Origin: Deltaproteobacteria bacterium
Lineage (GTDB): Bacteria > SAR324 > NAC60-12
Direction: 5' to 3'
NCBI GenBank assembly: GCA_038150265.1
Contig: JAYOTF010000015.1
Coordinates: 1-26,513 of the forward strand
Length of the DNA stretch: 26,513 nt
A program made the position numbers and the translations under genes. The notes beneath the pieces are model-generated. The model was not told where the DNA came from and did no database searches. It worked only from the letters and a program-made list of their open reading frames with translations. Positions within the stretch are counted from its first letter, which is position 1, and each line of letters opens with the position of its first letter. Below, piece after piece: positions 337-26,500 of this stretch.

Positions 337-981
337 TCAGTTGCTGAGGGGAATCGCCTGAATGAAGTCCTGGTAGTAGGGTTTGCGAAATTCCTGAAGC
401 AGACGAGCCAGTTCGGTCAGGGGGGCCGGGTGGTCATCAACACGCAGGTGGCACCACGGAAATGGCTGGTCCCGAATGGTTAGCAGGGCCGCCGACTGGC
501 GCCCCCGTCGATCGCCTCCAGCGGCGTCTCCCGCCTGGAGCGCGTGCAGCAGTCGTTCCTCCAGGTGGGTGCCCGACGTGGCTTCCAACGAGCGCACACA
601 CGCTTCAATCACGTCCGGACCCGCCAGGAGGTTCCCGGCCACACTGAAGTGATTCCCGTACGCGTGTCCGGCCCAGGGCTGGGTTCCGGAACCCGTCCAT
701 GCCCAGGAACGCCCTGCGGCATCAACCCCATGAAGCTGCCGGAGCGCGGCATCCGGGTCGGCATCGAGTACCACCTGCAGCGCCTCCGGAAGTGGGAGGC
801 CCCGGGCGAGTTGGTCAAGCCCCTGCAGGCCCAGGTGCGGATTGGTCGAGGCCTGAGTGGCCACAGCGCCCACGCCCTGAAGGAGGTGGGGAACCAGCGC
901 CCCCACCGCAAAGTGCCTGGTGGCCACGGCGATCCCGAAGTGCGGGTGGTCCGGATCTTTGAGAACGATGGAATACGTCAT
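337..981 (-). CDS. DUF1028 family protein (Ntn-hydrolase-like)
   Basis: Start reassigned to ATG at 981 (MTYSIV...GIAVAT...GVGAVATQA...RQ...TG...AGNLLAG...AGGDRRGRQSAAL...LRVDDHPAP..EL.RL), the typical DUF1028 pattern. The upstream ORF extension runs through the promoter region. Confidence 0.9.
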   Translation of the reverse strand: MTYSIVLKDPDHPHFGIAVATRHFAVGALVPHLLQGVGAVATQASTNPHLGLQGLDQLARGLPLPEALQVVLDADPDAALRQLHGVDAAGRSWAWTGSGTQPWAGHAYGNHFSVAGNLLAGPDVIEACVRSLEATSGTHLEERLLHALQAGDAAGGDRRGRQSAALLTIRDQPFPWCHLRVDDHPAPLTELARLLQEFRKPYYQDFIQAIPLSN

Positions 982-1008
982 GAGGCTCGATCGGAGGAGA
1001 GGATTTTT

Positions 1009-1058
1009 TAATTTATCATGATAAATTATTGACAGCCCGAAATTTATCATGATAAATT
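1009..1058. promoter_or_regulatory. Two identical palindromic operators AATTTATCATGATAAATT
   Basis: Copies at 1010-1027 (extends to a perfect 20-mer, 1009-1028) and 1041-1058, 31 bp apart, in the divergent intergenic region. Confidence 0.85.
1029..1058 (+). promoter_or_regulatory. Sigma70-type promoter of the ABC operon
   Basis: TTGACA (1029-1034), 18-bp spacer, TGnTAAATT extended -10 (1050-1058), overlapped by the second operator. Confidence 0.6.
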
Positions 1059-1112
1059 CGGGGCGATGCCGCAAGTTCGGCGACTCCTCGCTACTCTCTT
1101 TGGAGAAAGATC

Positions 1113-2678
1113 ATGCTGAAAAAAACGTTGAAACGGCTGGTGCTGGCAAGCGCGGCCCTTCTGAGCTTTGGGCCGCTGGCAAGTGCCGCGACGCCGAAAG
1201 ACGTCCTGGTGGTCGCCCAGATTGCCGAACCCAAGTCGATGGATCCGCACACCGTCACGGCTGTGAACGACTTCCGGATCCTGATGAACGTCTACGACGG
1301 GCTGGTACGCTACCGCAGCGGTACGCTCGAAGTGGAGCCCGGATTGGCGAAGTCCTGGGAGATCAGTGAAGACGGGCGCGTGTACACCTTCTCATTGCGC
1401 GAAGGCATTCAGTTTCACGACGGCACCCCGTTCAACGCCGAGGCGGTGAAGTTCAACTTCGACCGCATGCTGGTGGAAGGCCACCCGTTCGCCGAGACCG
1501 GTCCCTTCCCGCTGTCGTTCTTCTTCTCCGCCATCAAGGAGACCACCGTGGTCGATGAGTACACCGTGCAGTTCCGCATGGATGAGCCTTACGCGCCGCT
1601 GCTTTCCAACCTGGCCTACCCGACCGGACTCATTCTCTCGCCGGCAGCGGTGCGCAAGCATGGCAAAGATGTGGGCCGTAACCCGGCAGGAACCGGTCCG
1701 TACCAGTTCCGGGAGTGGAAGAGCAATCAGCATGTCATCCTCGACCGCAACGAGAACTACTGGGATGGACGCCCGGGCCTGAAGTCCGTGGTCTTCCGTC
1801 CGATCACCGATGCGAACACGCGGGTGGCCGAGATGCTTTCCGGAGGGGTGGACCTGATGGTGGAAGTCCCGCCGGACAACGTGGCAACCTTTTCCTCGAA
1901 CAGCAAGTACGCCCTCCACGAGCAGGCTGGACCGCACCTGTGGTTCCTGATCCTCAACCTCAAGGAAGGCCCACTGCAGGACAAGCGGGTGCGCCAGGCC
2001 CTCAACTACGCCATCAACAAGCAGGCCCTGGTGGAAAACGTCCTCCAGAACACCGCCACGGTTGCCAGCGGTCCGACCCCGGCAGCCTTCTCCTGGGCGT
2101 ACAATGATGCTCTGCAGCCCTATCCGTATGATCCGGAGAAGGCTCGGGCGCTCATCAAGGAAGCCGGCGCCGAGGGGGCCACGCTGACCTTCTACGTTAC
2201 CGAAGGGGGCTCCGGAATGCTGGATCCGGTTCCGATGGGAACCGCCATTCAGGCGGACCTCAAGGCCGTGGGCCTGAACGTGAAGATCGAGACCTACGAG
2301 TGGAACACCTTCCTCGGAAAGGTGAACCCGGGCCTCGAGGGCAAGGCGGACATGGCCGAGATGGCATGGATGACCAATGATCCAGACACCCTGCCGTTCC
2401 TGGCGCTCCGGACCGCAGCATGGCCGGAGCAAGGGGGCTTCAACTCCGGGTACTACTCCAACCCGAAGGTGGATGACCTGCTGGAGCAGGCGCGTGTCAG
2501 CACCAGCCAGACCGTCCGCGCAGCGCTGTACAAGGAGATGCAGAGCATTGTCCATGAAGACGCCCCCTGGGTGTTTGTGGCCAACTGGAAGCAAAATGCC
2601 GTGACTGGAAGCAACGTCGGAAACTTCCGACTGGAGCCTTCCTTCCTGCTGCTGCTTCATCAGGTCACCAAGAACTGA
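1113..2678 (+). CDS. ABC transporter substrate-binding protein, family 5 (DppA/OppA-like)
   Basis: Signal peptide (MLKKTLKRLVLASAALLSFGPLASA), LAKSWEISEDG..YTF.LREG..FHDGTPFNAEAV signature, GTGPY. RBS GGAGA upstream. Confidence 0.95.
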   Translation: MLKKTLKRLVLASAALLSFGPLASAATPKDVLVVAQIAEPKSMDPHTVTAVNDFRILMNVYDGLVRYRSGTLEVEPGLAKSWEISEDGRVYTFSLREGIQFHDGTPFNAEAVKFNFDRMLVEGHPFAETGPFPLSFFFSAIKETTVVDEYTVQFRMDEPYAPLLSNLAYPTGLILSPAAVRKHGKDVGRNPAGTGPYQFREWKSNQHVILDRNENYWDGRPGLKSVVFRPITDANTRVAEMLSGGVDLMVEVPPDNVATFSSNSKYALHEQAGPHLWFLILNLKEGPLQDKRVRQALNYAINKQALVENVLQNTATVASGPTPAAFSWAYNDALQPYPYDPEKARALIKEAGAEGATLTFYVTEGGSGMLDPVPMGTAIQADLKAVGLNVKIETYEWNTFLGKVNPGLEGKADMAEMAWMTNDPDTLPFLALRTAAWPEQGGFNSGYYSNPKVDDLLEQARVSTSQTVRAALYKEMQSIVHEDAPWVFVANWKQNAVTGSNVGNFRLEPSFLLLLHQVTKN

Positions 2679-2687
2679 TGACCAAAC

Positions 2688-2722
2688 GGGGGTGCCGCCT
2701 GGGCACTCCCTCTGACTTTTTT
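2688..2722 (+). terminator. Intercistronic stem-loop after the SBP gene (partial terminator or mRNA stabiliser)
   Basis: GGGGGTGCC-GCCTG-GGCACTCCC 9-bp stem (2688-2710), T-run at 2717-2722. Confidence 0.5.
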
Positions 2723-2736
2723 GGACTCTGGATCTC

Positions 2737-3684
2737 ATGTGGCGCTACACCCTGCATCGTCTGTTGCTGACGCTCCCGGTGCTCTTTGGCATTTCCGTGG
2801 TGGTCTTCCTGATCATGGCCCTGATTCCGGGAGATCCGGCCACCGCCATCCTCGGCGCCTTTGCGACTCCGGAGAATGCGGCCAAGCTGCGGAACGAGCT
2901 GGGGCTGGACCGCCCGCTCCTGGAGCAGTACTGGACGTGGGCCGGGAACCTGATTTCCGGTGATTTCGGGCGCAGCTACGCCCTCAACCGTCCGGTGCTG
3001 GATGAGCTGCTGGAGCGCCTTGGTCCGACCCTGCTGCTGGCTGGAGCGGCGCTGCTGCTCTGCGTGGTGCTGGGGGTGCTTTCCGGAGTCCTGGCAGCGG
3101 TCCGGCAGTACACGTGGGTGGATCAGTTCCTCACCCTCTTCACGCTGCTGGGCATTTCGGCGCCGTCCTTCTGGCTGGGGCTGATGGCCGTGTCGCTGTT
3201 TTCGGTGCAACTCGGCTGGCTTCCGGCGAGTGGCATGTTTACGCCTTATGGCGATGAAAGCTGGAGCGACCTGCTGCAGCACCTCCTCATGCCAGCCATC
3301 ACGTTGGGGCTGGTGGCTTCCAGTGTGATTGCGCGCCTCACCCGAACCAGCATGCTGGAGCAGATGCGGCAGGATTACGTCCGGACCGCCCGGGCCAAGG
3401 GGGAGCGCGAGTCAGCGGTGGTGCTGCGGCACGCCTTCCGGAATGCGCTGGTGGGCCTGGTGCCCGTGCTGGGGCTGCAGGCGGGGTTTGTGCTTGGAGG
3501 CGCCGTGTACATTGAAACCGTCTTCCAGTGGCCCGGCATCGGGCGCATGCTGGTCAATGCCATCTCCACGCGCGACATCCTGCTGGTGCAAGGGGGCGTG
3601 ATGATGGTGGCCACCCTGTATGTCCTCCTCAACCTGCTGGCCGACTTGCTCCAGCACGCCCTGGACCCCCGGATTCAGCACTGA
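2737..3684 (+). CDS. ABC peptide transporter permease (DppB/OppB-like)
   Basis: IPGDPA, LGLDRPL..QY..W, GDFGRS, DYVRTARAKG...HAFRNAL, ETVFQWPGIG motifs. Confidence 0.95.
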   Translation: MWRYTLHRLLLTLPVLFGISVVVFLIMALIPGDPATAILGAFATPENAAKLRNELGLDRPLLEQYWTWAGNLISGDFGRSYALNRPVLDELLERLGPTLLLAGAALLLCVVLGVLSGVLAAVRQYTWVDQFLTLFTLLGISAPSFWLGLMAVSLFSVQLGWLPASGMFTPYGDESWSDLLQHLLMPAITLGLVASSVIARLTRTSMLEQMRQDYVRTARAKGERESAVVLRHAFRNALVGLVPVLGLQAGFVLGGAVYIETVFQWPGIGRMLVNAISTRDILLVQGGVMMVATLYVLLNLLADLLQHALDPRIQH

Positions 3685-3685
3685 C

Positions 3686-5572
3686 ATGACCACTCCTGCA
3701 CAAGAATTCTGGCAACGGCTGAACCGCAACCGCCTGAGCACCATTGGGCTGGTGCTGCTCGTGTGCCTGGGCCTGCTCTGCCTGCTGACCCCCTGGCTTC
3801 CGCTGCCGGACCCGGATGCAACCAACCTGGCCAATCGCCTCAAGCCACCGCTGCATCCGGACCACTGGCTTGGCACCGACGAACTGGGACGCGACCTGCT
3901 CTCTCGGCTCCTCTGGGGCACCCGCGTCAGCTTGGCTGTGGGGGTGGTGGCCACCCTTGCCGCGGCCTTCATCGGGAGCACGATTGGCCTGCTCTCCGGC
4001 TACTTTCAGGGCTGGATCGACAGCACCCTGATGCGGGTGGTGGACACCCTGATGGCCTTCCCGTACATGCTGCTCGCGCTGGCCATTGTGGCTGCCTTTG
4101 GTCCCGGGCTCCTCAACGCGCTCCTGGCCATCGCCATTGTCAACGTCCCCTTCTTTGCCCGGACGGTCCGGGGCGCAACGATTTCCCTGGCCCGCCGAGA
4201 GTTTGTCCTGGCAGCCCGTTTGGGAGGCGCGTCTCATGCGGAAACCCTCTGGCGCGAGTTGCTTCCGAATGTCCTCCCGGTGGTGGTGGTGACGGTTTCA
4301 ACGACTGCGGGTTGGATGATTCTGGAAACCGCCGGCCTCAGCTTTCTGGGACTGGGCGCACAGCCTCCCACTGCCGACCTGGGGTCGATGCTGGGGGAAG
4401 GGCGCAAGCTGCTTTTCACGGCGCCGCATGTTTCCACCATTCCGGGACTGCTGATCCTGGTGCTGGTGATTTCCCTGAACCTGCTGGGAGACGGCATCCG
4501 CGATGTCCTGGATCCACGCCTGCGAGGTGGAGCCCTCCGGAGCCCTCAGCCGCAGACAGAGGTCCGTCGCCTGACTCAGCCTGATCCTGCCGCCGGGCCG
4601 CCGGGCAAGCTGGTGGTGCAGCAACTGAGCACCGAGCTGGTGCAGCACGGCGTGGGGCACCCGCTGGTCCGGAACCTCGACCTGGTGCTCCAGCCCGGCG
4701 AATGCCTGGGACTGGTGGGAGAGTCCGGATGCGGCAAATCCGTCACGGCGCTCTCGCTTTCAGCACTGGCCGCGTCACCTCCCCTGCGCATCACGTCCGG
4801 ATCGGTCGCGCTGGAAGGCACCGACCTGATTGGCCTTCCGCTTCCGCTTCTGCAGGACCTCCGGGGCCGGCGTGTTTCCTACATCTTTCAGGATCCGCTG
4901 GCAACGCTGAATCCGGTTCTGACCGTGGGCACGCAACTGCTGCAGGTCATTCAGCGGCACCAACGCCTGACGGCTTCCGCTGCACGAGAACACGCACTGG
5001 CCCTGTTGCAGCGGGTGCGGATTCCTCTTCCGGAGTCGCGTCTGGACGCCTTCCCGCATCAGCTTTCGGGCGGCATGCGGCAGCGGGTCTGCATTGCCAT
5101 GGCGCTGGCGAACCGTCCGGAGGTCCTCATTGCCGATGAACCCACCACGGCGCTGGATGTGACCATTCAGGCGGAGATCCTGGCGCTGCTGCAGGAGCTG
5201 CGGGCGGACTTCCACCTTTCGGTGATTTTCATCACCCACGACCTCGGTGTGGTCTCAACCCTCTGCGACCGTGTGGCGGTGATGTATGCAGGCGAAGTGG
5301 TGGAGTCAGGCCCCACCGCAGAAGTGCTGGAGCATCCGGAGCACCCGTACACGCAAGCGCTGCTGAAGTGCACCCCTCGGCTGGGCTCCGGAGAAAAATC
5401 ACACGGCGGCATTCCGGGCACGCCACCGGCTCCGGGAAGCATTCCCGCCTCTTGTGGCTTTGCCGAGCGCTGCCCGCACGCCGCGGCGCCGTGTCAGGTG
5501 CCGGTCGCCTTGCAGGCCACGGCATCCGGACGCCTGGTGCGCTGCACCCGGGCTGAGGAGGCACATGCCTGA
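3686..5572 (+). CDS. Fused ABC permease / ATP-binding protein (DppC-DppD fusion)
   Basis: Start at ATG 3686. N-half: HWLGTDELGRD..SRLLWG.R.SL, LSFLGLG..PP. C-half: Walker A GESGCGKS, LSGGMRQRV, IADEPTTALD, ITHD, Cys-rich C-terminal oligopeptide domain. Confidence 0.93.
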   Translation: MTTPAQEFWQRLNRNRLSTIGLVLLVCLGLLCLLTPWLPLPDPDATNLANRLKPPLHPDHWLGTDELGRDLLSRLLWGTRVSLAVGVVATLAAAFIGSTIGLLSGYFQGWIDSTLMRVVDTLMAFPYMLLALAIVAAFGPGLLNALLAIAIVNVPFFARTVRGATISLARREFVLAARLGGASHAETLWRELLPNVLPVVVVTVSTTAGWMILETAGLSFLGLGAQPPTADLGSMLGEGRKLLFTAPHVSTIPGLLILVLVISLNLLGDGIRDVLDPRLRGGALRSPQPQTEVRRLTQPDPAAGPPGKLVVQQLSTELVQHGVGHPLVRNLDLVLQPGECLGLVGESGCGKSVTALSLSALAASPPLRITSGSVALEGTDLIGLPLPLLQDLRGRRVSYIFQDPLATLNPVLTVGTQLLQVIQRHQRLTASAAREHALALLQRVRIPLPESRLDAFPHQLSGGMRQRVCIAMALANRPEVLIADEPTTALDVTIQAEILALLQELRADFHLSVIFITHDLGVVSTLCDRVAVMYAGEVVESGPTAEVLEHPEHPYTQALLKCTPRLGSGEKSHGGIPGTPPAPGSIPASCGFAERCPHAAAPCQVPVALQATASGRLVRCTRAEEAHA

Positions 5573-6542
5573 GCCGTTGTTGAAGCTGACCGATGTCACC
5601 CGGAGCTTTGTTCTGCGCCGTGCCCAGTGGGGCCGTCCGGAAGAGCGCCTGCAGGCTGTGGGAGGCGTGAGCCTTGAGCTTCCTGCTGGCGCTGCCCTGG
5701 GCGTGGTCGGAGAGTCCGGATGCGGCAAGTCGACCCTGGCCCGGATGATGGTTGGACTCGATGCCCCCACGAGTGGAACCCTGGCCTTCAAGCAGCGCTC
5801 CCTGAAGGAGTGGCTCAAGGATGACGCCCTGGCGTTCCGCCGTTCGGTGCAGATGGTGTTTCAGGACCCGGCCGGCTCGCTGAACCCACGGCAGCGCATT
5901 CAAGACATCCTGGACCTGCAGCTGCGCCGCCTGACTCCGTGGCCACCTGAGCAACGCCAGCAGCGCATCCGCGAAGTGCTGGACCAGGTGCAGCTTCCGG
6001 AGGCGGCGCTGGGGCGGTTTCCTCATGAATTTTCCGGGGGGCAGGCGCAGCGGATCAGCATTGCACGGGCGCTGGTGTCCATGCCCGAGCTGGTGGTGCT
6101 GGACGAGCCCGTGTCCGCCCTGGATGTGTCGGTGCAGGCACAGATCCTTCAGCTGCTGGACACGATGCGGCAGGAGCTGGGGGTGACGTACCTCTTCATC
6201 AGCCACGACCTGGCCGTGGTGGAGCAGCTGTGTCCGGAGACGGTGGTCATGTATGCCGGGCGGTTGGTGGAACGCGGGCCCACGGCGCAGCTGTTCCGGA
6301 ACCGCCGGCACCCGTACACCGACCTGCTGGTCCGGAGTGTCCCCGTTCCAGGCCAGATGCTGGCGATTGAACCCGGCAAGGCCTTTGAAATTGCTACAGG
6401 CGCCGGGTGCGCGTTTGCCCCGCGTTGTCCGCGTGCGACCGAACGCTGCGAGGAGTTTCCTCCTTTGCAGGCGGTGGACGCTTCTTCCGGGCACGCCTGT
6501 GCCTGTCACCACATGCTGGATGAACCCCGTGAAGTCCTCTGA
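5565..6542 (+). CDS. ABC peptide transporter ATP-binding protein (DppF/OppF-like)
   Basis: Start at ATG 5565 after GAGGAGG. GESGCGKST, FSGGQAQRI, LDEPVSALD, ISHD, HPYT, GC.F..RCP. Confidence 0.95.
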   Translation: MPEPLLKLTDVTRSFVLRRAQWGRPEERLQAVGGVSLELPAGAALGVVGESGCGKSTLARMMVGLDAPTSGTLAFKQRSLKEWLKDDALAFRRSVQMVFQDPAGSLNPRQRIQDILDLQLRRLTPWPPEQRQQRIREVLDQVQLPEAALGRFPHEFSGGQAQRISIARALVSMPELVVLDEPVSALDVSVQAQILQLLDTMRQELGVTYLFISHDLAVVEQLCPETVVMYAGRLVERGPTAQLFRNRRHPYTDLLVRSVPVPGQMLAIEPGKAFEIATGAGCAFAPRCPRATERCEEFPPLQAVDASSGHACACHHMLDEPREVL

Positions 6543-7575
6543 TTCTTTTCTCCTGGAAACGCTCCAGACGCTGATGCGCCTTCCCAGTCCGAGTGGACGG
6601 ACGGAGGAGGTGGTCGCCTGGACGGAGTCGCTCCTGAAGAGCTGGGGCCTGAGCCCCACCCGAACCCGCCGTGGCGCGATCAAAGTGGAACTGCCGGGAC
6701 GGGAGACGCACCGGGCCCGTGCCCTGACGGCGCACCTGGACACGCTCGGAGCCATGGTCCGGAACCTCAAGGACAACGGCCGCTGTTCGCTGGCGTCCGT
6801 GGGCACCTGGTCCAGCCGCTTTGCCGAGGGGGCTCGGGTGACGCTTCACACCGACACCCAGGACTACCGTGGCACCATCCTGCCGCTGCTGGCGTCCGGA
6901 CACGCCTACAATGAAAAAGTCGACCAGCAACCCGTCAACTGGGATCAGGTGGAGCTGCGCATTGATGAACACTGCCTCAACCGTTCCGATCTGGAGGCGC
7001 TCGGGGTGCAGCCCGGGGACTTTGTCTCTGTGGATACCGGGACCGAGATTTTGGACAACGGTTTCATTTTTTCCCGGCATCTGGATGACAAGGCAGGAGT
7101 GGCGGCGCTGCTGAACGCGTTGCGGCAACTGGTGGAAGCCGAAGCCGAGCTTCCCTGTACCACCCACCTCATCCTGACCGTCCGTGAAGAGCTGGGAGAC
7201 GGGGGCGCGGCGGTGCTGACTCCAGACGTCTGGGAACTGGTCACCATCGACAATGGCGTGCAGGCGGCCAGTCAGCACTCGCGCGAGTTTGGGGTCACGC
7301 TGGCAATGGGTGACAAGACCGGCCCGTTCGACCGGAACCTGGTCCGGCACCTGGCGCGCCTCTGCACCGAACACGACCTGCGGCACCAGCGGGACCTGTT
7401 CCGGCATTACCGTTCGGACCTGGCCGCCGCGGTGGAAGCCGGGTTTGACGTCCGGACCGCCCTGATTGCCATCGGACTCGACGGCAGCCACGGGCACGAG
7501 CGCACGCACCTGGATGCCATTCGGACGGCTTCCGAGCTGGCTCGCCTCTACCTCCTTTCCCCTCTCCTGGACTGA
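6520..7575 (+). CDS. M42 family metallopeptidase, NAGGN-system type
   Basis: Start ATG 6520 (or GTG 6529), overlapping the previous stop. SPSG, AHLDTLGAMV, WSSRFAEGARVT, GTILP..ASGH, RHLDDKAGVA, EE.G.G, GPFD, HYRSD..AA.EAG.D.RTAL, SHGHER match the subfamily usually annotated as osmoprotectant NAGGN system M42 peptidase. Confidence 0.85.
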   Translation: MNPVKSSDSFLLETLQTLMRLPSPSGRTEEVVAWTESLLKSWGLSPTRTRRGAIKVELPGRETHRARALTAHLDTLGAMVRNLKDNGRCSLASVGTWSSRFAEGARVTLHTDTQDYRGTILPLLASGHAYNEKVDQQPVNWDQVELRIDEHCLNRSDLEALGVQPGDFVSVDTGTEILDNGFIFSRHLDDKAGVAALLNALRQLVEAEAELPCTTHLILTVREELGDGGAAVLTPDVWELVTIDNGVQAASQHSREFGVTLAMGDKTGPFDRNLVRHLARLCTEHDLRHQRDLFRHYRSDLAAAVEAGFDVRTALIAIGLDGSHGHERTHLDAIRTASELARLYLLSPLLD

Positions 7576-7578
7576 CCT

Positions 7579-8799: not shown

Positions 8800-8805
8800 G
8801 GTCCA

Positions 8806-9546: not shown

Positions 9547-9698
9547 CGTCCCGCCTGCGATTCCGGAAGGGGGCCGGGCCCGATTGAGGGGCTCCCGGCT
9601 TGCGAATTCGCCACAAAACTGCCAGAAAGTCTTGTCTTTACCACCATCTGAGCTATTTTGATTAGTTTGCAGATTCACCTCGGCTTGCAAAGGAAACC

Positions 9699-16739: not shown

Positions 16740-16844
16740 GGAGGGCTCCTGTTGAGGTTCTTGACATTTGGAAGGCACCCCCTATGCTTTTTGAATCTTC
16801 CGGATCAGCTGCCGGAGCTGAATTCCCAACTGAATCAACCAGCC

Positions 16845-17892: not shown

Positions 17893-17978
17893 TGCGTAAA
17901 AGGCTTGCTCCGTCTCTGACTTTGCGGTAAAAAGATAAGTTTAGTTTTTTCAACACTCTTTACCTCAGTCAGGGTTTC

Positions 17979-18469: not shown

Positions 18470-18474
18470 TCGGC

Positions 18475-18789: not shown

Positions 18790-20558
18790 TGGAAAAGAAC
18801 ACGTTGCTGGCGGTGGTGATCTCCATGGTCATTCTGGTGGGCTGGTCCTACTTTTTCCCACCTCCGGAGCCTCCGAAACCGGAAACTCCTCCTTCTGCGG
18901 AAGTGACCCAGGCGCTGGATGAAGTGGCGGCTGAGGCACTGGCGGGCCGTGAGGCATCCATGGCCTCCGAGCCGGCTGACACGCTTCCGGAAACTCCGGT
19001 GGTGGCCGTGGACGCGAGCCTGCCTGCCCGAGAGATCGTGGTGCAGACCGACCGCTTCCGGGTGCTGCTGAACAGCCGCGGTGGCGTGGCGACCAGCTTG
19101 CAGCTGACCAACTACGACCACACCAAGCCCCGCCTGACCCTGAGCACCTGGTTCCCCATCCTGGAAGGGGTGCTGGGGCCCGACTACCAGCTGTCGGTGA
19201 CCGAGGGCAACAAGGTGGAGATGCTGAGCAACTACGTCCCAAACGTGGAGGCCTTCGGGGTGCAGTTTGAGGATGACTCGGAGCTGACCCAGCGCTTCCG
19301 GAACGCCAGTTATGCCATTTCGGTGAACGGCCAGACGCTGGAGCCGGGGACCGATCAGCAGACCTTTGCGCTGGGCGCGGAAGATGAGTCCATGACGGTG
19401 GAACTGCGCTCGGTAGAAGTGGGAGGCGTGCAGCTGGTGAAGACCCTGACCTTTCGGCAGGGCGCACACCTGATCGACTACGACCTGCAGGTCATCAACC
19501 GCTCCCTGTCTGCCAAGCCCCTCAAGGTCCGGCAGCTCTTTGGCGAAGCCCGCTTCCATGAAGGCGAGGTGGACACCCGAGCCGGGCACCGAGGCCCGGT
19601 GTACTTCACGGATGGCAGCCTGGAAACCCATGGGCTGGATGAGGCCCGGGACGGCCTGCGAGTGGGAGACTTTGACTGGGTGGGACTGGAAGACCACTAC
19701 TTCATCAGCGCCGCCGCGCCGCTGGCTCCGGTCAAGGAAGGATTCTATCAGGCCCGGGAAACCGAAGGCACCGGACTCGCACCCTATTATGGCATCCGCC
19801 TGCCGCTGGTGGAACTGCTCCCCGGGAAGCTCGTGGAAGTCCCCTTCCAGCTCTACTTCGGCCCGAAGGATGAGGCGGAAATGACCAAGTTTGGTCGCAA
19901 CCTGAACCAGTCCCTCAACATGACCCTCGAGTCCCTGGCGGGACCGCTGCTGTCGCTGTTGCGAGGAATTTACGGGGTTGTGGGGAACTACGGGGTGGCC
20001 ATCATCATCCTCACCGTGATCGTTCGACTCGTCCTCTTCCCGCTGACCTACCGCGGCATGAAGAGCATGAAGCGCATGCAGCAGCTGGCGCCGAAGATGA
20101 AGCGGATTCAGGAGAAGTACAAGAACGACAAGGAAAAGCTGCAGATGGAAATGATGGGCCTGTATCGCAAGAACAAGGTCAATCCGGTCGGAGGCTGCTT
20201 GCCGCTGCTGCTGCAGATTCCGGTGTTCCTGGCGCTCTACAGTGCGCTTTCCAGCGCCGTTGAGTTGCGGCATGCGCCGTTCGGGCTCTGGCTCAGCGAC
20301 CTGTCTCAGGCAGATGGCCTGGGGATCACGCCGATCCTCATGGGCGCCACGCTGTACTTCCAGCAGAAGCTGACCCCGCAGAGCGCGGTGATGGACCCGA
20401 CGCAGGCGAAGATCATGCAGCTGATGCCGCTGGTGTTTGCCGTCTTCAGCTTCACCTTCCCGTCTGGACTGGTGCTGTACTGGGTGACGAGCAACCTGCT
20501 CTCAATGGGGCAGCAGCAGATCATCAACCGGATCAAGACGCCGGAGATTCAGGACTGA
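18789..20558 (+). CDS. yidC: Membrane protein insertase YidC
   Basis: N-terminal TM, large periplasmic domain, GNYGVAII.LT..VR, NPVGGCLP.L.QIP.F, ELRHAPF..W..DLS, PSGLVLYW. Confidence 0.97.
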   Translation: MEKNTLLAVVISMVILVGWSYFFPPPEPPKPETPPSAEVTQALDEVAAEALAGREASMASEPADTLPETPVVAVDASLPAREIVVQTDRFRVLLNSRGGVATSLQLTNYDHTKPRLTLSTWFPILEGVLGPDYQLSVTEGNKVEMLSNYVPNVEAFGVQFEDDSELTQRFRNASYAISVNGQTLEPGTDQQTFALGAEDESMTVELRSVEVGGVQLVKTLTFRQGAHLIDYDLQVINRSLSAKPLKVRQLFGEARFHEGEVDTRAGHRGPVYFTDGSLETHGLDEARDGLRVGDFDWVGLEDHYFISAAAPLAPVKEGFYQARETEGTGLAPYYGIRLPLVELLPGKLVEVPFQLYFGPKDEAEMTKFGRNLNQSLNMTLESLAGPLLSLLRGIYGVVGNYGVAIIILTVIVRLVLFPLTYRGMKSMKRMQQLAPKMKRIQEKYKNDKEKLQMEMMGLYRKNKVNPVGGCLPLLLQIPVFLALYSALSSAVELRHAPFGLWLSDLSQADGLGITPILMGATLYFQQKLTPQSAVMDPTQAKIMQLMPLVFAVFSFTFPSGLVLYWVTSNLLSMGQQQIINRIKTPEIQD

Positions 20559-21526
20559 CTGACCTGCGGGTCAAACACCCTGGCCACGGTCTCCAGCAAC
20601 TCCGGAACCTGCTCCAGCGGCAGGTCGTTGATGCCGGCGGCCTTGGAGCGTCCCCCGCCGCCAAGGGAGCGGCAGATGACATCGGCTCCGCTGGGGCGAC
20701 TCAGTGGGGCGCGGACGCTGACGAGCCCTCCTCCTCTTCCATTCTCCACCAACACAACCAACCCCTGGTCAGGGGCTTCCCGAATCTGTTCATTGCTGAA
20801 GACGCCGGCGATGCGACGGCCCCAGGCTTCATTGGGAAAGCGGAAGAAGCGGAAGGCCTCCGTTTCGGCTGCTGGGGCCACCGCCTGAGCCTGCCGCTGA
20901 TCCTGCTGAAAGTGCTCCCGCAGGGCGGGAAGCGCCTCGGAGAGCCGAGCAAAGTCGAGTGGGTTCTCAAAGGGGTGCAGCTGATTGAAGAGGTCTTCTG
21001 GCGCATAGTGCAGGTCCTGCAGCGTCTCGCCGTACCCGTTGTAATTGAGCAGCTCCCCGGTTTCCCGGAGCAGGGCGAGGTCGGCCTCGCTGAGGTTCAG
21101 CGTGGCGGCCAGTTCCTGAGCAGTGCGGTGCTGGTTGTCGCCAAAGGCGCCTGCAAGGGCCCAGAGGCGGTAGGCGCCCCCCAGGTGCCGATCCACCAGG
21201 GTGCTGGTGCAGACTTCCGGATCCGGATCAATGAAGGAGGTAAAGTGGGGGTGGTCCGGAAGGGCGCCGGCAAAGTGATGGTCGAAGTAGCGGATGGTAT
21301 TCTGCTGCTCAAGCAGCTGCAGGAGCGGGGCTCGGTTGACATCCAGCGAGATGTCGAGGACGGTGATGGAGCATCCGGTGCGCTCTTGAATACGGGAGAG
21401 CAGTCGGATGTCGCGCTTCACCCCGGTGATGCGTTCCGAGGCGAGGGGTTGGTGCAACCGCAACTGTTGCAGCGCACACAACCCATCGGCATCTCCGTTG
21501 AACACGTCAATGTGTTGGGTCGTCAC
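20549..21526 (-). CDS. DHH family phosphoesterase
   Basis: DVFNGDADG, DIS, YFDHH, C-terminal SVRAP...GGGR..AAGI (DHHA1-like). Confidence 0.85.
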   Translation of the reverse strand: MTTQHIDVFNGDADGLCALQQLRLHQPLASERITGVKRDIRLLSRIQERTGCSITVLDISLDVNRAPLLQLLEQQNTIRYFDHHFAGALPDHPHFTSFIDPDPEVCTSTLVDRHLGGAYRLWALAGAFGDNQHRTAQELAATLNLSEADLALLRETGELLNYNGYGETLQDLHYAPEDLFNQLHPFENPLDFARLSEALPALREHFQQDQRQAQAVAPAAETEAFRFFRFPNEAWGRRIAGVFSNEQIREAPDQGLVVLVENGRGGGLVSVRAPLSRPSGADVICRSLGGGGRSKAAGINDLPLEQVPELLETVARVFDPQVSQS

Positions 21527-21705
21527 TGAGCAAAAAAGAGGACTTGGAGACTGAACAAGGTGGCAAAGAGCACCACTCCCCCCAGAGCGATGGTAATGGG
21601 AGTGCTGAGTGCCCCGTTGCTTCGGAATCGCCGGTTGACCTCGTGCTTCTCAAAGCGACGGATCGGGTCCCGACGGATGAAGGTTTGGCTTTTCATCACG
21701 GACAT
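21523..21705 (-). CDS. Small hypothetical single-TM protein
   Basis: 60 aa, basic N-half and hydrophobic C-terminal helix. Stop overlaps the DHH gene start (GTGA). Confidence 0.5.
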   Translation of the reverse strand: MSVMKSQTFIRRDPIRRFEKHEVNRRFRSNGALSTPITIALGGVVLFATLFSLQVLFFAQ

Positions 21706-21784
21706 GGCGCTCGAAATGGGCTGAAAAGGTTCTCAAGCTCCCCAAAGGGATCAGGAACTGTTTCAGCAAAAAGAGTGCCTAAAT

Positions 21785-22879
21785 TCAGTCCGTGAGGCGA
21801 TTCATGGCCCGTGTCTGGTTGCGCAGGTAGTGGTCGGCCAGCACCAGGGCCACCATGGCGTCGATCATCGGCACCGCCCGGGGCAACACGCAGGGGTCGT
21901 GCCGGCCCTTGGCGCGGAGCTTGGTCGCTTCTCCGGACTGGTTCACCGTGTCCTGCTCAAAGTTGATGGTCGCCGTGGGTTTGAACGCGACCCGGAAGTC
22001 GATGGGCTCTCCGTTGCTGATGCCTCCCTGGATGCCTCCGGAACGGTTGGACTGGGGGCGGATCCGCCCGTCTTCAGAGGTGAAGGCGTCGTTGTGCTGG
22101 GAGCCCTTGAGGAGCACCGAATCAAAGCCGAGGCCAAACTCCACACCCCGGGTAGCGGGCAGGGACATCATGGCCTTGGCGAGGTCGGCGGTGAGCTTGT
22201 CGAAGACGGGCTCGCCCAGTCCGGGAGGAATGTTCCGGATGTGGGCCCGGATGATGCCCCCGACGCTGTCTCCGCCCTTCCGGGCTTCCAGAATCCGGGC
22301 CTCCATGCGGGCGCTGGCTTCCGGATCGGGACAACGCACGACGCTGGCCTCCACGGCCTCGGCGGTGACGTCTTCCGGAGCGATGCTTGCGGTCAGGTCA
22401 TGGATCTGCTCCACCCATGAAAGGATCTCGGCGCCACAGAGCTGGTGCAGGAGTTTCCGGGCAACGGCGCCGGCAGCCACCCGCCCAATCGTTTCCCGAG
22501 CGCTGGAGCGTCCGCCTCCCATCCAGTTGCGGAAGCCGTACTTGCGATCGTAGGTAAAGTCGGCATGGCTGGGCCGGTAGAGGTCCTTGAGGTGGTCGTA
22601 GGCCTGAGGCCGGGCGTCTTCGTTACGGACGAGGATTGCGAGCGCGGTGCCAGTGGTCCGGCCATCAAAGACGCCTGAGAGGATCTCCGCGGTGTCGCTT
22701 TCCTTGCGCTGGGTGGTGATTTTGCTCTGTCCGGGACGCCGGCGGTCGAGGTCGGCCTGGATGTCGCTGAGGTCCAGTTCCAGGCCGGCAGGGCAGCCGT
22801 CGATGACCACGCCAATGCCGCCGCCGTGTGATTCGCCCCAGGTGGAGATCCGAAAGAGGTGGCCGAAGCTATCGCCCAT
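21785..22879 (-). CDS. aroC: Chorismate synthase
   Basis: [49 protein letters not shown]. Confidence 0.98.
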
Positions 22880-22880
22880 G

Positions 22881-23681
22881 TCAGTTTACGGCTAAGGGTT
22901 TCAGGTGAGACAGATCTGCCTGTTGCAGGTGAAGGGACGCCGCGAGGGCCTGGTTCTCAGCGATTCCGGCCTGGACGTCTCGGGGGTGGTGGCAGTCGGA
23001 GTTGCAGACCACCTGGATGGGGTACTCCTGGGCCAGTTCCCAGAACGGCCGCCAGGGGTAGGGAGGCCGCTGCCCCTCGGCGCCGGGCACCTTGGGCTTG
23101 CGGAGGCCATAGCCATTGATTTCCAACGGGACCCCGGTTTCCACAGCGGCCGCCAGGATGTCTCGCGAGCAGGCCGCGACGTCTTCAGTCCAGCTCATCT
23201 GAATGCCTCCAAAGAGGTCCGGATGGGCAATGAAGGCAAAGAGGCCGGTGGCCATCATTTCCTCAAGGTAGCGCGCATACGCCCGCAGGTGGGTGGCCGT
23301 TCGCAGCTCGACAAAGGAGTTGAGCCAATCGCCCTGGAAGGGGGTGAAGTGTCCGGCGCCAATGAGGTAGCTGAAGTGCCGGGCCTCAAGCAACTCCTCG
23401 GCAAAGTAGGCATGAAACTCCGGAATGTACTCGCACTCCATGCCAAGCAGGACGTTCACTTCCGGAACCACCTCGGCGGCATGATGAACCGCGGCAACGT
23501 AGTCATCCAGCTCATCAAAGCGCATCCGGACGTCAGGCCAGCGGTTGTCTGGCAGAGCGGCATGATCGGAGACGCCGAAGGTGGACATCTTAGCCTGAGC
23601 AGCGGCCCGGACGTAATCGATAACGTCCTCGTCTGCATGCTGGCAACGGAAGGTATGAGAGTGATAGTTGGCGAGTGGCAA
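22881..23681 (-). CDS. PHP-family histidinol-phosphatase (HisJ-like)
   Basis: NYHSHT.RC.HA, SDH, GMECEY, AHPD, LEIN, NSDCH. TTG start is uncertain. Confidence 0.85.
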
Positions 23682-23766
23682 GGCTGGGTGTCGTCACGAA
23701 AGGATTGAGCTTGAAAGAACGAAGATAACAACGGGTCACGAACGTGCAAGGAGATTTCACCGCGGC

Positions 23767-23794
23767 TTGACCCTGAGGTGGGCTTTGGTACGAT
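23767..23794 (+). promoter_or_regulatory. Sigma70-type promoter for sthA
   Basis: TTGACC (23767-23772), 16-bp spacer ending TGG, TACGAT (23789-23794). Confidence 0.5.
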
Positions 23795-23849
23795 TATCGC
23801 GTTCTGAAACACGCAAAAATTCCCCTCCTCTGTCTGACGGTAGCTCACC

Positions 23850-25259
23850 ATGCAAGATGTACATCATTACGACCTCGCGGTCATTGGCTCTGGCCCTGCT
23901 GGAGAGAAAGCCGCCATGCAGGCCAGCAAGCTCAAGAAACGGGTGGTGATGATCGAGAACAAGCCTCGGCTCGGAGGGGCGTCTCTGCATACCGGAACCA
24001 TCCCGTCCAAGTCCCTCCGGGAAACGGTGGTGAACCTGTCGATGATCCGGCAGCAGACGCATGGCATCCAGATTTCGTTCAAGGACAACCTGACCACCGA
24101 CGAGCTGATGTACCGCAAGCAGGTGGTGATTCAGGAGCAGGAAAACTCGCTCAAGCGGAACCTGGACAAGAACCGGGTCACCACCCTGGTGGGCAGCCCC
24201 CGGTTTTTGAGCCCGACGGAGCTGGAGGTCCTTCCGAATGACGGCAGCGAGCCGATTCGCCTCACGGCGGATTTTTCCATCATTGCCACGGGTTCGAGTC
24301 CACGGCGTCCGAAGTGGGCCCCGTTTGACAACGAGTGCGTGTTCGATTCCGACAGCATCCTCAAGATCAAGCACCTCCCGAAGAAGATCACCATCATCGG
24401 AGCCGGGGTCATCGGCTGCGAATACGCGTGCATCTTTGCGAAGCTGGGGATCCGTGTGAACCTCATTGCCCGCGACCGCAACGTGCTGCCGTTCCTCGAT
24501 CGCGAGATTGCCGAAGCACTGATCTACCGGATGCGCAACCAGCGCATCACCCTGCGCCTGGGGGAAAACGTCAAGGACATCCGAAAGGTGGCTCCGGAAG
24601 AGGTGCTGGTGGAGCTGGAGAGTCAGAAGGTGCTGCCCTGCTCAACCGTGCTGGTTGCTGCTGGCCGGACGGCGAACTCGGAAAACCTGGGCCTGGAGGA
24701 GATTGGCATTGAGCTGGGCCACAACCTGCTCATCAAGACCAACGAGGTCTACCAGACGGCGCGTCCGAACATCTATGCCGTTGGCGACGTCATTGGCTTC
24801 CCCGGACTTTCGTCAACCTCAATGGTGCAGTCCCGGATTGCCGTCCTGCACGCCTTTGGCGAACTGCAAAACGAGTCCATGCCCAAGGAGTTTCCCTACG
24901 GCATCTGGACGATTCCAGCGGTGGCGATGGTGGGGCAGACGGAAGAGGAGCTGACCGAGGCCTGCATTCCCTATGAAATCGGCGTGGCCCACTTCAAGGA
25001 GATCTCCCGGGCGCACATCATGGGAGAAGAGGAGGGCATCGTGAAGCTCATCTTTGATCCCGAAAGCCTGAAGCTCTACGGCGTCCACATCATCGGCCCC
25101 CGCGCGGCAGAACTCGTTCACCTCGGACACTCGGTGATGCACCTTGGGGGAACCATCCGGTACTTCATCAACGCGGTGCTCAACTGCCCCACACTGGATG
25201 AAGCCTACCGGGTCGCGGCCTTCAATGGCATCAACCGCCTCGATCACGACTCCCTCTGA
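23850..25259 (+). CDS. sthA: Soluble pyridine nucleotide transhydrogenase
   Basis: GSGPAG, GG...HTGTIPSK.LRE without a redox CxxxxC, GAGVIGCEYA..F, GDVIGFP.L, GI.TIP, G..A.ELVH.G, PTL.EAY..AA.NG.NRL. Confidence 0.9.
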   Translation: MQDVHHYDLAVIGSGPAGEKAAMQASKLKKRVVMIENKPRLGGASLHTGTIPSKSLRETVVNLSMIRQQTHGIQISFKDNLTTDELMYRKQVVIQEQENSLKRNLDKNRVTTLVGSPRFLSPTELEVLPNDGSEPIRLTADFSIIATGSSPRRPKWAPFDNECVFDSDSILKIKHLPKKITIIGAGVIGCEYACIFAKLGIRVNLIARDRNVLPFLDREIAEALIYRMRNQRITLRLGENVKDIRKVAPEEVLVELESQKVLPCSTVLVAAGRTANSENLGLEEIGIELGHNLLIKTNEVYQTARPNIYAVGDVIGFPGLSSTSMVQSRIAVLHAFGELQNESMPKEFPYGIWTIPAVAMVGQTEEELTEACIPYEIGVAHFKEISRAHIMGEEEGIVKLIFDPESLKLYGVHIIGPRAAELVHLGHSVMHLGGTIRYFINAVLNCPTLDEAYRVAAFNGINRLDHDSL

Positions 25260-25262
25260 TTC

Positions 25263-25304
25263 CGGAAGCCGGGTCCGATGACCCGTGCCTTCCGCTCATT
25301 TTTT
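25263..25304 (+). terminator. Putative intrinsic terminator after sthA
   Basis: CGGAAG..CGGGTC-CGAT-GACCCG..CTTCCG hairpin (25263-25294), followed by TTTTTT at 25299-25304. Confidence 0.45.
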
Positions 25305-25340
25305 CCAGAATTCCCAAGACGGCTGGCCAGGACATTTTCC

Positions 25341-25370
25341 TTGACATCCGCCTTGGCACGATGTTAGCTT
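25341..25370 (+). promoter_or_regulatory. Sigma70-type promoter of hrcA
   Basis: TTGACA (25341-25346), 18-bp spacer, TGnTAGCTT (25362-25370), immediately before CIRCE. Confidence 0.65.
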
Positions 25371-25371
25371 A

Positions 25372-25398
25372 TTAGCACTTTCTTGAGATGAGTGCTAA
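25372..25398. promoter_or_regulatory. CIRCE operator
   Basis: TTAGCACTT-N9-GAGTGCTAA, one mismatch to TTAGCACTC-N9-GAGTGCTAA, upstream of hrcA. Confidence 0.95.
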
Positions 25399-25438
25399 CG
25401 ATCGATCAGGCAACAAGGGGGATTCATCCAGGGACCGC

Positions 25439-26500
25439 ATGGGAACGAGAAAGCAGGGTCAAGACATTGACGAGCGCATGCAGATGGTGCTGCGCGGCAT
25501 TGTGGATAGCTACATTGAGAACTCGGAGCCTGTGGGGTCGAGAACCCTGTCGAAGCAGTTAGAGGTTCAGTTCTCTCCGGCGACGATCCGGAACATCATG
25601 TCGGACCTGTCGGAGATGGGCTACCTGATGCAGCCGCACACTTCCGGGGGACGCATTCCGACGGACAAGGCGTACCGGCTGTATGTCGATTCGCTGGTGG
25701 TGGCCAATCAGCTGCCGAACAGCATCCAGAGTCACATCGCGGAGCTGTCGAAGCTGGGGACAACGGCGCCAGTGGAGGTCTTGCTTCAGAACACCACCCG
25801 CATCCTGGCGGGACTGACCAAATTCGTCTGCCTGGTCACGGCTCCGAAGACGGAGGTGAGCCTGCTGCAGCGCATTGAGTTCATCAAGGTCAGCGCCCGC
25901 AAGGTGCTGGTGATTCTGGTGACCAAGTCCGGTGTGGTGCGCAACAAGATCATTGACACGCCAGAAGACTTCCCCCAGGACTTCTTCAACACGATCTCCG
26001 CGTTCCTCAATGATCAGTTCCAGAACCGCTCCCTGCAGCAGATCCGTGAGGAGATCCTCCGGAGCATGGTGGAGGACAAGGAACGCTACGACCAGCTCCT
26101 TGCGCAAGCGGTCCGGCTCGGCAAAAAAGCGTTTGAGCTCGATGAGCGCGAAGAGATGTACATGGAAGGCCAGTTCAACCTGCTCAAGAACGAGCGTTTT
26201 CAGAGCACCGAGGTGGTGCAGCACCTGATGGACGCCTTTGAGCACAAGAGCATGATCATGGATGTGCTGGACCACACCGTCCGGGCGGAGGGCGTGCAGC
26301 TGTACATCGGGGTGGAAAACGAGTCTGAGAACCTGAGAGACTGCACCCTGGTAGCCGCCAACTACCGCAACGAAAACAACGTGTTGGGCACCATTGGGGT
26401 CATTGGTCCCACCAGCATGAATTATCAGCACATCATTCCTGTCGTGGACTACACGGCCAAAATTCTATCCCAAGCCATTTCTGAGCAAGCCTATGACTGA
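25439..26500 (+). CDS. hrcA: Heat-inducible transcription repressor HrcA
   Basis: IV..YI...EPVGS..L, SPATIRN.M.DL...GYL.QPHTS.GRIPTDKAYR.YVD, IG.EN, GVIGP..M.Y. Start at 25439 (AGGGA RBS) preferred over 25388, which lies within CIRCE. Confidence 0.97.
   Translation: MGTRKQGQDIDERMQMVLRGIVDSYIENSEPVGSRTLSKQLEVQFSPATIRNIMSDLSEMGYLMQPHTSGGRIPTDKAYRLYVDSLVVANQLPNSIQSHIAELSKLGTTAPVEVLLQNTTRILAGLTKFVCLVTAPKTEVSLLQRIEFIKVSARKVLVILVTKSGVVRNKIIDTPEDFPQDFFNTISAFLNDQFQNRSLQQIREEILRSMVEDKERYDQLLAQAVRLGKKAFELDEREEMYMEGQFNLLKNERFQSTEVVQHLMDAFEHKSMIMDVLDHTVRAEGVQLYIGVENESENLRDCTLVAANYRNENNVLGTIGVIGPTSMNYQHIIPVVDYTAKILSQAISEQAYD

Follow-up and report, generated by a model that had tools for sequence, protein, structure and literature searches.

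TCCGGA as a highly iterated, helically phased palindrome in a clade of one SAR324 family

Why should a stretch of bacterial DNA filled with housekeeping genes carry one six-base palindrome far more often than its composition predicts? The question is raised by the window analysed here, a whole stretch of 26,513 nucleotides (G000:C15:1-26513) from an assembly of the SAR324 lineage that we call G000 (3.39 Mb, 3,393,712 bp; 87 contigs, the largest 214 kb; 61.3% guanine plus cytosine (GC); 97.8% complete). The hexamer TCCGGA occurs in the window exactly 89 times (3.4 per kb; array 614..26063, no strand assigned), the first copy at 614-619 and the last at 26058-26063, whereas 100 dinucleotide-preserving shuffles of the window contain 9.71 +/- 3.11 copies, with a maximum of 17, and none of the 100 reaches 89. 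Two control words of the same composition, ACCGGT and AGGCCT, occur 6 and 9 times. A first-pass annotation, made from the letters alone, had estimated about 89 TCCGGA sites, a roughly 10-fold excess and fewer than ten copies of ACCGGT, and had proposed an iterated palindrome like the cyanobacterial HIP1 outside the cyanobacteria; the exact counts agree with these estimates, and the phenomenon is real and specific to a lineage within SAR324. As an explanation, we give about even credence to a sequence-specific duplex-binding protein that reads TCCGGA chromosome-wide in a clade within one SAR324 family, the word being maintained by weak genome-wide pressure.

First, the window is a local sample of the 9,711 copies in G000, where TCCGGA occurs once per 349 bp and ranks first among the 4,096 hexamers. 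Its observed-to-expected ratio (O/E) is 8.67 at zero order and 7.57, 3.95, 2.39 and 1.22 under Markov models of first, second, third and fourth order. The first-pass annotation had called for such nulls and had held that a ratio near 1 after conditioning on 5-mers would speak against enrichment. Run genome-wide, the nulls leave a clear excess at orders 0 to 3, and the fourth-order value comes near to 1 because the 5-mers TCCGG and CCGGA already hold the signal; since these 5-mers are themselves enriched, we consider that conditioning an unfair test. It is the full palindrome that stands out in G000 (8.67 compared with 2.26 for TCCGGG, 1.62 for TCCGGT and 1.40 for TCCGGC), the remaining 15 NCCGGN words having a mean O/E of 1.16, and at position -1 of the word T is mildly favoured (32% versus 19% background).

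Nor is the excess confined to the window, a case for which the first-pass annotation had allowed. Density is even among contigs longer than 12 kb (about 2.2-3.4 per kb), overall placement is near-random (coefficient of variation 0.98), and gaps of at least 3 kb without the word number 3, with 1.5 expected. The motif-poor stretches code for polytopic membrane permeases and for very large surface proteins built of repeats, in which contexts that permit the word are few; with three gaps only, encoding proteins of these kinds, we reject the idea that they are foreign islands. One motif-poor region, C34:3-10454, is an open reading frame (ORF) of at least 3,484 amino acids (aa), open at the contig end, with repeats rich in D-N-S/T and 'VDEG', and presumably encodes a surface adhesin. 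Within the window, 43 of the 89 sites do lie in the first part (up to 9840), as had been counted before, at 4.37 per kb compared with 2.76 per kb elsewhere, and 1.2% of genome windows hold at least 43 sites per 9.84-kb stretch. The earlier suggestion that this density reflects long residence of an accessory ATP-binding cassette (ABC) cluster is not supported: the cluster is collinear in both congeners, and density differences elsewhere track protein composition.

Second, the excess is independent of what the DNA encodes. Gene calls were home-made; they comprise 2,677 genes, cover 87% of the genome and overlook some genes. The codon phase of a site was assigned by its start position modulo 3. 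In G000, 2,053 sites read TCC-GGA, 2,366 read xTC-CGG-Axx and 4,270 read xxT-CCG-GAx, which exceeds 20 within-gene synonymous-codon shuffles 3.9-, 3.2- and 5.1-fold, respectively, and for short intergenic segments of 20-150 bp the count is 135 where 16.9 are expected (8.0-fold). The excess therefore holds in every phase when codons are shuffled, as the first-pass annotation had proposed to check, and its argument that no single dipeptide explains the sites extends to codon preference, which does not account for the excess either. Where the protein permits the word, it is written far more often than codon usage predicts: in 2,053 of 6,106 Ser-Gly pairs (33.6% versus 8.1%), in 4,270 of 8,746 X-Pro-Asp/Glu contexts (48.8% versus 8.0%) and in 2,366 of 6,341 contexts in which [FLIV]-Arg precedes a codon starting with A (37.3% versus 10.9%). 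Similarly, glycine is encoded by GGA in 69% of cases following TCC, compared with 22% following codons that do not end in CC. The dipeptides Ser-Gly (1.41), Pro-Glu (1.65) and Pro-Asp (1.35) are over-used in G000, and thinning of the word is limited to about 30 bp around start codons. Moreover, for each one-base neighbour there are 0.307 cognate sites in coding DNA (5.3 times expectation) and 0.280 in intergenic DNA (4.9 times), an equality from which we conclude that the pressure is uniform and, at about ln 5 per site, weak.

Third, the copies obey spacing rules. Relative to the long-range baseline, distances of 11-17 bp occur at 0.26 in G000, 0.33 in its congener G002 and 0.38 in G013 from another genus, and distances of 18-24 bp at 0.63, 0.43 and 0.26, an exclusion zone whose floor lies at about the level of an unenriched word. 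At closer range, distances of 9-10 bp form a local peak, and spacings of 6-8 bp stand at 0.57 of baseline genome-wide. Beyond the exclusion zone, pair distances in G000 oscillate with a period of 10.45-10.5 bp (z = 15.6 for 10.5 bp against 200 nulls preserving the gene and codon phase of each site; z = 14-15 against a jitter null). For example, distances of 41 and 42 bp are represented by 50 and 49 pairs genome-wide where about 25 are expected, with further peaks at 51-52 bp, and the relative amplitude declines slowly from 0.19 at 6-60 bp to 0.034 at 325-430 bp. The phasing is seen in all three classes of distance modulo 3 and persists for pairs that do not share one gene (relative amplitude 0.072, noise 0.02), and repeats are not the cause, since the inner sequences at the peak distances are all distinct.

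This phasing belongs to the word. Among 23 control hexamers in G000, 20 gave z of at most 1.7, including the one-off words CCCGGA, GCCGGA, ACCGGA and TCTGGA; the higher values came from CCGGAA (4.6) and CCGGAG (5.7), which overlap the word, and from CCTGGA (3.6). Measured against cognate sites, outer-base variants are weakly phased (0.025, noise 0.006) and inner-base variants are not phased. A 10-11-bp dinucleotide periodicity is described as general in genomes in the available text of PMC7537859, and the control words used here do not display it. When G000 (genus g1; 3.39 Mb, 9,711 sites), G002 (g1; 880 kb, 2,014 sites) and G013 (g12; 1.14 Mb, 2,614 sites) were treated alike, the periods were 10.5, 10.5 and 10.65 bp with z of 14.0, 5.8 and 7.8, none of 200 nulls matched the observed amplitude in any of the three genomes, and ten control hexamers in G013 gave z of at most 1.3. 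The favoured offset (with its 95% bootstrap interval) is 9.9 bp (9.51-10.29) in G000 and 9.9 bp (9.55-10.33) in G002, that is, whole helical turns, whereas G013 favours half turns with an offset of 5.0 bp (4.48-5.52). The phasing is thus genus-specific, and it is also heritable. In G002, pairs that include a site absent from G000 keep the phase (0.091, noise 0.038, offset 9.7), from which we conclude that the spacing rule is re-created during site turnover.

That turnover is considerable. The congeners G002 and G000 are collinear, with a nucleotide identity of about 82-83%, and retention was scored over 880 kb of G002 (96% aligned; high-scoring segment pairs of at least 600 bp and at least 72% identity; 95 unaligned sites excluded). 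At the aligned place in G000, 1,105 of 1,919 G002 sites (57.6%) are also TCCGGA, compared with 33.8% for all hexamers, which ranks the word 36th among 1,161 frequent hexamers, above more than 97% of them. In the direction from G000 to G002, a 79-kb sample gave 20/45, 26/58 and 39/107 conserved coding sites by phase, against 33% for all hexamers, and 7/24 conserved intergenic sites, against 41.5%. Between 40 and 60% of the sites differ between the congeners and density remains high. Sites private to one lineage come with an amino-acid difference in 500 of 1,193 cases for G000 and 315 of 733 for G002, the background for differing hexamers being 29-35%, and one-base differences lie at the outer bases in 56 of 131 cases (CCCGGA/TCCGGG 34, GCCGGA/TCCGGC 14, ACCGGA/TCCGGT 8).

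Fourth, the trait has a narrow distribution. The comparison of related genomes that the first-pass annotation had suggested revealed lineage-specific enrichment in three SAR324 genera that belong to one family. The relatives of a conserved gene carry the annotation SAR324 cluster bacterium or Candidatus Lambdaproteobacteria, and the closest AroC loci in named genomes belong to metagenome-assembled genomes labelled Deltaproteobacteria. Among 80 named AroC loci none has a TCCGGA excess (maximum 1.3 per kb), and the cyanobacterial loci among them show CGATCG, which served as a positive control. The trait is confined to part of family f1 (45 genomes), where TCCGGA reaches 2.2-2.9 per kb in g1, 1.4-2.3 per kb in g12, 0.6-2.1 per kb in 15 of 18 g11 genomes (0.12-0.16 in the other three, G034, G042 and G043, whose assemblies are only 51-57% complete) and 0.7-1.1 per kb in g4, and stays at 0.13-0.24 per kb in the nine genomes of g2. 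We judged enrichment by O/E from sampled DNA together with sites per kb and not by the ratio to AGGCCT; this control word is itself under-represented in G013, G037 and G005 (O/E 0.24-0.32), so that survey ratios of TCCGGA to AGGCCT overstate the enrichment of these three genomes. On this basis the O/E is 7.1 in G002 (g1, 60% GC), 8.4 in G001 (g1, 61% GC), 7.6 in G013 (g12, 56.5% GC) and 12.5 in G037 (g11, 43.4% GC), and TCCGGA is the top hexamer in the sampled DNA of all four, which represent three f1 genera; the same top word from 43% to 61% GC means that the trait is independent of GC content. G005 (g4, 51.5% GC) is a modest case (3.7, the other NCCGGN words averaging 1.74), and G014 (g2, 42% GC) has an O/E of about 2 in 22 kb sampled and no substitute palindrome. 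Neither this fourth f1 genus nor the sister family f2 is enriched.

A class-wide reading, in which f7 and f4 were enriched and other f7 genera avoided TCCGGA 100-fold, was rejected after DNA sampling. G083 and G084 (f7) and G023 (f2) avoid CCGG generally (O/E 0.08-0.16), as they do many other palindromes; in G069 and G079 all NCCGGN words are enriched 2-3-fold and not TCCGGA alone; and in G066 the control word AGGCCT is simply missing. Avoidance specific to TCCGGA is seen in G087 only (0 versus 26 expected). Several observations on palindromes may be recorded alongside. The CCGG-avoiding DNA was sampled at loci L262-L264 and L268-L272; 55 kb of G087 are without any TCCGGA, CTCGAG, CTGCAG, GTCGAC, GTATAC or TACGTA; and each of G023, G021 and G026 (1.6-3 Mb) has 21-24 matches to the methylase family PF01555, an uncommonly large restriction-modification load. 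A restriction-modification system common to the depleted genomes was rejected, their C5 methylases being just 26-31% identical to one another. In G000 itself, CTAG palindromes are nearly missing (O/E 0.03 for ACTAGT and CCTAGG, 0.06 for TCTAGA and GCTAGC), as is CATATG (0.03).

What could impose such a pattern? It is a robust inference that something recognises TCCGGA on duplex DNA and covers about two turns of it, and that the value of a copy depends on its rotational setting; a sequence-specific DNA-binding protein, probably dimeric, is the simplest candidate. TCCGGA would be the recognition word of this protein, probably a symmetric dimer, along the whole chromosome. A weak directional pressure on all resident DNA, of about ln 5 to ln 9 per site and of the same order as codon bias, would hold the word at about 35-50% of the positions that proteins permit, equally so in non-coding DNA, and would be sufficient to skew the usage of Ser-Gly, Pro-Glu and Pro-Asp, amino-acid changes included. 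A second copy at about 11-24 bp would gain almost nothing, which fits a footprint, and farther copies would be favoured at a fixed mutual rotational setting, at whole turns in g1 and at half turns in g12. Among the causes offered by the first-pass annotation, a nucleoid signal fits best because the copies are helically phased and mutually exclusive at 11-24 bp, whereas an orphan methyltransferase or repair system fares badly, as set out below. We infer that the pressure is selection for binding by the protein that reads the word, rather than this protein's own biased repair. In a bolder form, which we advance tentatively and are inclined to doubt, the chromosome of the clade would be a sequence-encoded protein array, with an abundant dimeric protein every ~350 bp and the genome rewritten, down to the amino acids it encodes, for a fixed rotational register over hundreds of bp, and the switch from whole to half turns would reflect co-evolution of protein geometry with the spacing of ten thousand sites. 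If true, such an array would be a bacterial counterpart of sequence-directed chromatin.

Several points weigh against a binding protein under selection. The genes tested yielded no candidate reader, which makes the central actor a postulate. The flanks of isolated sites in G000 lack a helical A/T pattern (10.5-bp amplitude 0.0004, median 0.0005) and so bear no signature of bending or wrapping. Whole turns in one genus and half turns in another require the added assumption of a different reader geometry. Sites whose nearest neighbour is in phase are conserved in 230 of 394 cases (58.4%) compared with 116 of 225 (51.6%) for those whose nearest neighbour is out of phase, a trend that is not significant (z ~1.6), and preferential retention of in-phase sites was therefore not accepted. 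The phase and intergenic statistics rest on the home-made gene calls described above, with their 87% coverage and missed genes. Finally, a bound repair or modification enzyme would equally yield phasing and exclusion, so that these features do not tell selection from biased conversion; the lack of a cognate methylase, the uniformity of the pressure and the rapid turnover are compatible with both.

The alternative that survives best is accordingly a repair ratchet linked to methylation, as proposed for HIP1 by Elhai 2015 (PMC4390886), in which an orphan methyltransferase marks TCCGGA and a mismatch-repair activity, directed by the methyl group or by the site, turns near-cognates into the word and shields the copies already there, leaving enrichment as a neutral by-product. 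We consider it unlikely, and yet much in the data has the right form for it. In the available text of that paper, cyanobacterial highly iterated palindromes (HIPs), the CCGG-centred rCCGGy included, co-occur with cognate methyltransferases, and one-base differences mostly at outer bases, to which our 56 of 131 compare, were likewise seen for HIP1 (PMC4390886). Equal pressure in coding and non-coding DNA and fast turnover are typical of mutational bias, and a site-bound enzyme could generate both the exclusion zone and the phasing. The agent itself is what speaks against the ratchet. G000 has no match to PF00145 (C5 methylase), PF03852 (Vsr) or PF02384 (type I/IIG-type N6 methylase), and C5 methylation combined with Vsr was rejected on the first two counts; the deamination-type neighbours are not depleted there either (O/E 2.57 for TCTGGA/TCCAGA and 1.34 for TTCGGA/TCCGAA), and the signature of very-short-patch repair of the Dcm/Vsr type is absent from G000. 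We searched the methylase families PF00145, PF01555, PF02384 and PF02086, a choice that other enzyme families would escape and from which specificity cannot be read, and none of the four follows the trait. C5 methylases occur in none of the three g12 genomes, in neither G000 nor G001 and as fragments only in g11, and canonical PF01555 methylases in none of the three g12 genomes, not in 17 of 18 g11 genomes and not in G002, which leaves the genera with the strongest enrichment without either.

Two methylase genes of G000 deserve individual mention. Its sole canonical PF01555 gene, on contig C45, encodes a 258-aa protein of the N4/N6 type (TSPPYW…DPFAGGGT) and lies directly behind a reverse transcriptase of the retron type (469 aa with YADD; 3.9e-59 to the NCBIfam retron St85 family). 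Together with a 311-aa ORF without assignment the two genes occupy C45:1438-4560 (L081:35-3156), possibly as a retron-type defence unit with a methylase partner. A full ortholog of this methylase is present in G001 only (71% identity), with a fragment in G002 and nothing comparable in g11 or g12, and we rejected it as the driver on account of its retron linkage and confinement. The second gene, at C51:2-1387 (L083), is a divergent methylase-like gene with permuted motif order, DPFMGGGT…TSPPY, in which the TSPPY part varies as (S/N/C/R)PP(Y/F). Its product begins with a basic RDERPRRDD repeat cut by the contig end, has as best PDB match 8s9n, a DNA cytosine-N4 methyltransferase, with a motif IV like that of N4-cytosine methylases, and is followed downstream by a TerB-like gene. 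Genes of this type are vertically inherited in the order (32 of 44 genomes in f1, 18 of 19 in f2, none of 24 in f3-f7), and could be necessary for the trait because they are present in every strongly enriched genus. They are not a sufficient driver: 7 of 9 genomes of non-enriched g2 and 18 of 19 of the non-enriched sister family have one, the catalytic motif is intact in non-enriched g2, g9 and g5, and it is variable or degenerate in g12, g3, g6 and g4 (APPA, NPPM and RPPL among the tetrapeptides), a pattern which suggests a conserved role in which catalysis may not always be needed. In sum, the search for a TCCGGA or CCGG methyltransferase recommended by the first-pass annotation returned none that tracks the trait among the four families, and its proposed orphan-methyltransferase or repair cause loses ground accordingly.

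A role as an uptake or self-recognition word is a still weaker contender, to which we assign a small probability. DNA carrying TCCGGA would be preferentially taken up, or spared by nucleases, and the word would spread by recombination as a molecular drive. Transformation is reported to become more efficient with HIP1, depending on methylation (bioRxiv 10.1101/2024.09.10.611283), and a correlation of HIP1 with genes for secretion and transformation is reported as well (PMC13756078), as far as the available parts of these sources go. TCCGGA is evenly spread and written into genes with amino-acid changes, G000 has ComEC, and some uncultured viral contigs have a similar TCCGGA density. The uptake signal sequences (USS) of Pasteurellaceae are likewise written into genes with amino-acid changes. 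Known uptake sequences are longer than 6 bp and non-palindromic, and a 6-bp palindrome seems too unspecific for uptake. Every one of the 12 genera has ComEC (PF03772), as do 19 of 19 high-quality genomes of the family whether or not they are enriched; being universal, ComEC fails to discriminate enriched from non-enriched genomes and was rejected as a correlate. A drive of this kind, moreover, predicts neither a 10.5-bp rotational rule nor an exclusion at 11-24 bp.

The viral contigs are an observation in their own right. We examined 80 viral loci chosen for two nearby copies of TTCCGGAA, which contains TCCGGA, a choice that inflates the density of short loci. L297 (a 248-kb contig, 42.5% GC), L320 (a 110-kb contig, 67% GC), L335, L354, L311 and L305 are TCCGGA-dense, and dense uncultured viral contigs carry 2-3.9 copies per kb at O/E 10-15, on par with the SAR324 clade. 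The dense loci share no genes convincingly with G000, and since protein matches of the 80 loci were weak (23-30% identity), a phage link to G000 was rejected.

That the structure of the DNA itself suffices, TCCGGA being a flexible or kinkable step whose phased copies set the course of the chromosome with no dedicated protein, we hold to be very improbable: the phasing period of 10.45-10.65 bp is indeed the helical repeat of B-DNA, but the sites lack the helical A/T pattern mentioned above, whole-turn and half-turn genera would yield opposite shapes, and there is no physical reason for such use by one clade across 43-61% GC. A mere side effect of base or amino-acid composition or of codon usage, to which the fourth-order ratio of 1.22 and the over-used dipeptides might seem to point, can be set aside with near certainty, refuted as it is by the 3.2-5.1-fold excess over synonymous shuffles in each phase, the 7-8-fold intergenic excess, the dependence of GGA on a preceding TCC (69% versus 22% after non-NCC codons), the mean of 1.16 for the other NCCGGN words and the same top word at 43-61% GC, and given that the low fourth-order ratio merely restates the enrichment of the contained 5-mers.

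Returning to the window, its gene content is housekeeping (an Opp/Dpp-type ABC transporter, peptidases, tpiA, secG, a PilB-like ATPase, moaA, yidC, aroC, lpd and hrcA), and its 89 sites comprise 19 in TCC-GGA phase, 24 in xTC-CGG-Axx, 43 in xxT-CCG-GAx and 3 in intergenic DNA, in line with the first-pass annotation, whose individual landmarks could all be located. On the plus strand, TCC-GGA encodes Ser-Gly in the Walker A motif GESGCGKS both of the first ABC ATPase domain (4724..4729) and of the second ABC ATPase (5715..5720). The sole intergenic sites under our own gene map, none with an assigned strand, lie between a GntR-family regulator gene and tpiA (9562..9567), between a tRNA-binding-domain gene on the minus strand and moaA (16799..16804) and directly after the dihydrolipoyl dehydrogenase stop codon (25261..25266). 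The doubled site is made of two abutting copies, TCCGGATCCGGA, at a spacing of 6 bp (21216..21227), and the favoured distances are exemplified by a pair 42 bp or 4.0 helical turns apart (23419..23466) and a pair 52 bp or ~5 turns apart (5335..5392), again without strand. As a separate matter, positions 3620-5569 form a single 650-aa ORF in which an OppC-like permease (BPD_transp_1, OppC_N) is joined to an ABC ATPase with an oligo_HPY C-terminal region, a permease-ATPase fusion that is uncommon in Opp/Dpp-type systems.

We believe that these results matter beyond one clade. In cyanobacteria, palindromes of this kind have resisted explanation for three decades, and TCCGGA adds an independent second case from an uncultured phylum of global abundance, which means that the phenomenon is not peculiar to cyanobacteria. 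The lack of a matching methylase, the footprint-sized exclusion and the genus-dependent register together narrow the mechanisms to a duplex-DNA binder, for which natural in-phase and out-of-phase arrays could be used as baits and thus offer an experimental handle. Family f1 also supplies natural contrasts, with enriched genera, one non-enriched genus and three non-enriched genomes within an enriched genus, and the word is a strong signature for binning and host assignment in this clade and possibly for its phages. A literature search that most subscription journals lay outside turned up neither TCCGGA enrichment in bacteria nor SAR324 palindromes nor helical phasing of such words.

How, then, does TCCGGA compare with known systems? 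USS in Pasteurellaceae and the DNA uptake sequences (DUS) of Neisseriaceae occur in thousands of even copies, lie in genes at a cost to the protein and are specific to a family; they consist of 9-12 bases, are not palindromes and are linked to an uptake receptor that has been identified, and we know of no helical phasing among them. TCCGGA resembles them in its thousands of evenly spread, family-specific copies within genes at some protein cost, and differs in being a helically phased 6-bp palindrome whose presence does not follow that of competence genes, ComEC being non-discriminating. Closer are the alternate HIPs, GGCGCC in Calothrix PCC 7103, GCsGC in Cyanothece PCC 7822 and rCCGGy in Oscillatoria PCC 10802, where a different palindrome, one of them CCGG-centred, replaces HIP1 as the outlier word (PMC4390886); in the available text each of these belongs to a single genome with a matching methyltransferase, whereas TCCGGA spans at least three genera with none that tracks it. 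Closest is HIP1 itself (GCGATCGC; PMC4390886, PMC5861425), in the part of its literature available to us also a short G+C-rich palindrome found about once per few hundred bases throughout a lineage, genic in all frames as well as intergenic, with raised retention and variation at the outer bases. A methyltransferase of matching specificity accompanies HIP wherever it is abundant (Elhai 2015, PMC4390886), and HIP sites are conserved between genomes beyond comparable words (Xu et al. 2018, PMC5861425), again as described in the text available; TCCGGA shares the standing of an extreme outlier word, the presence in all frames and in non-coding DNA and the raised conservation, and departs from HIP1, which has DmtA and DmtC, in that the four families searched contain no matching methyltransferase. 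The periodicity described for HIP1 is one of 10-90 kb (PMC5861425), and that of TCCGGA is a 10.5-bp phasing seen in fragmented assemblies that allow a short-range view only. TCCGGA is a hexamer of a SAR324 lineage and differs from HIP1 also in its short-range exclusion zone and its genus-specific helical phase.

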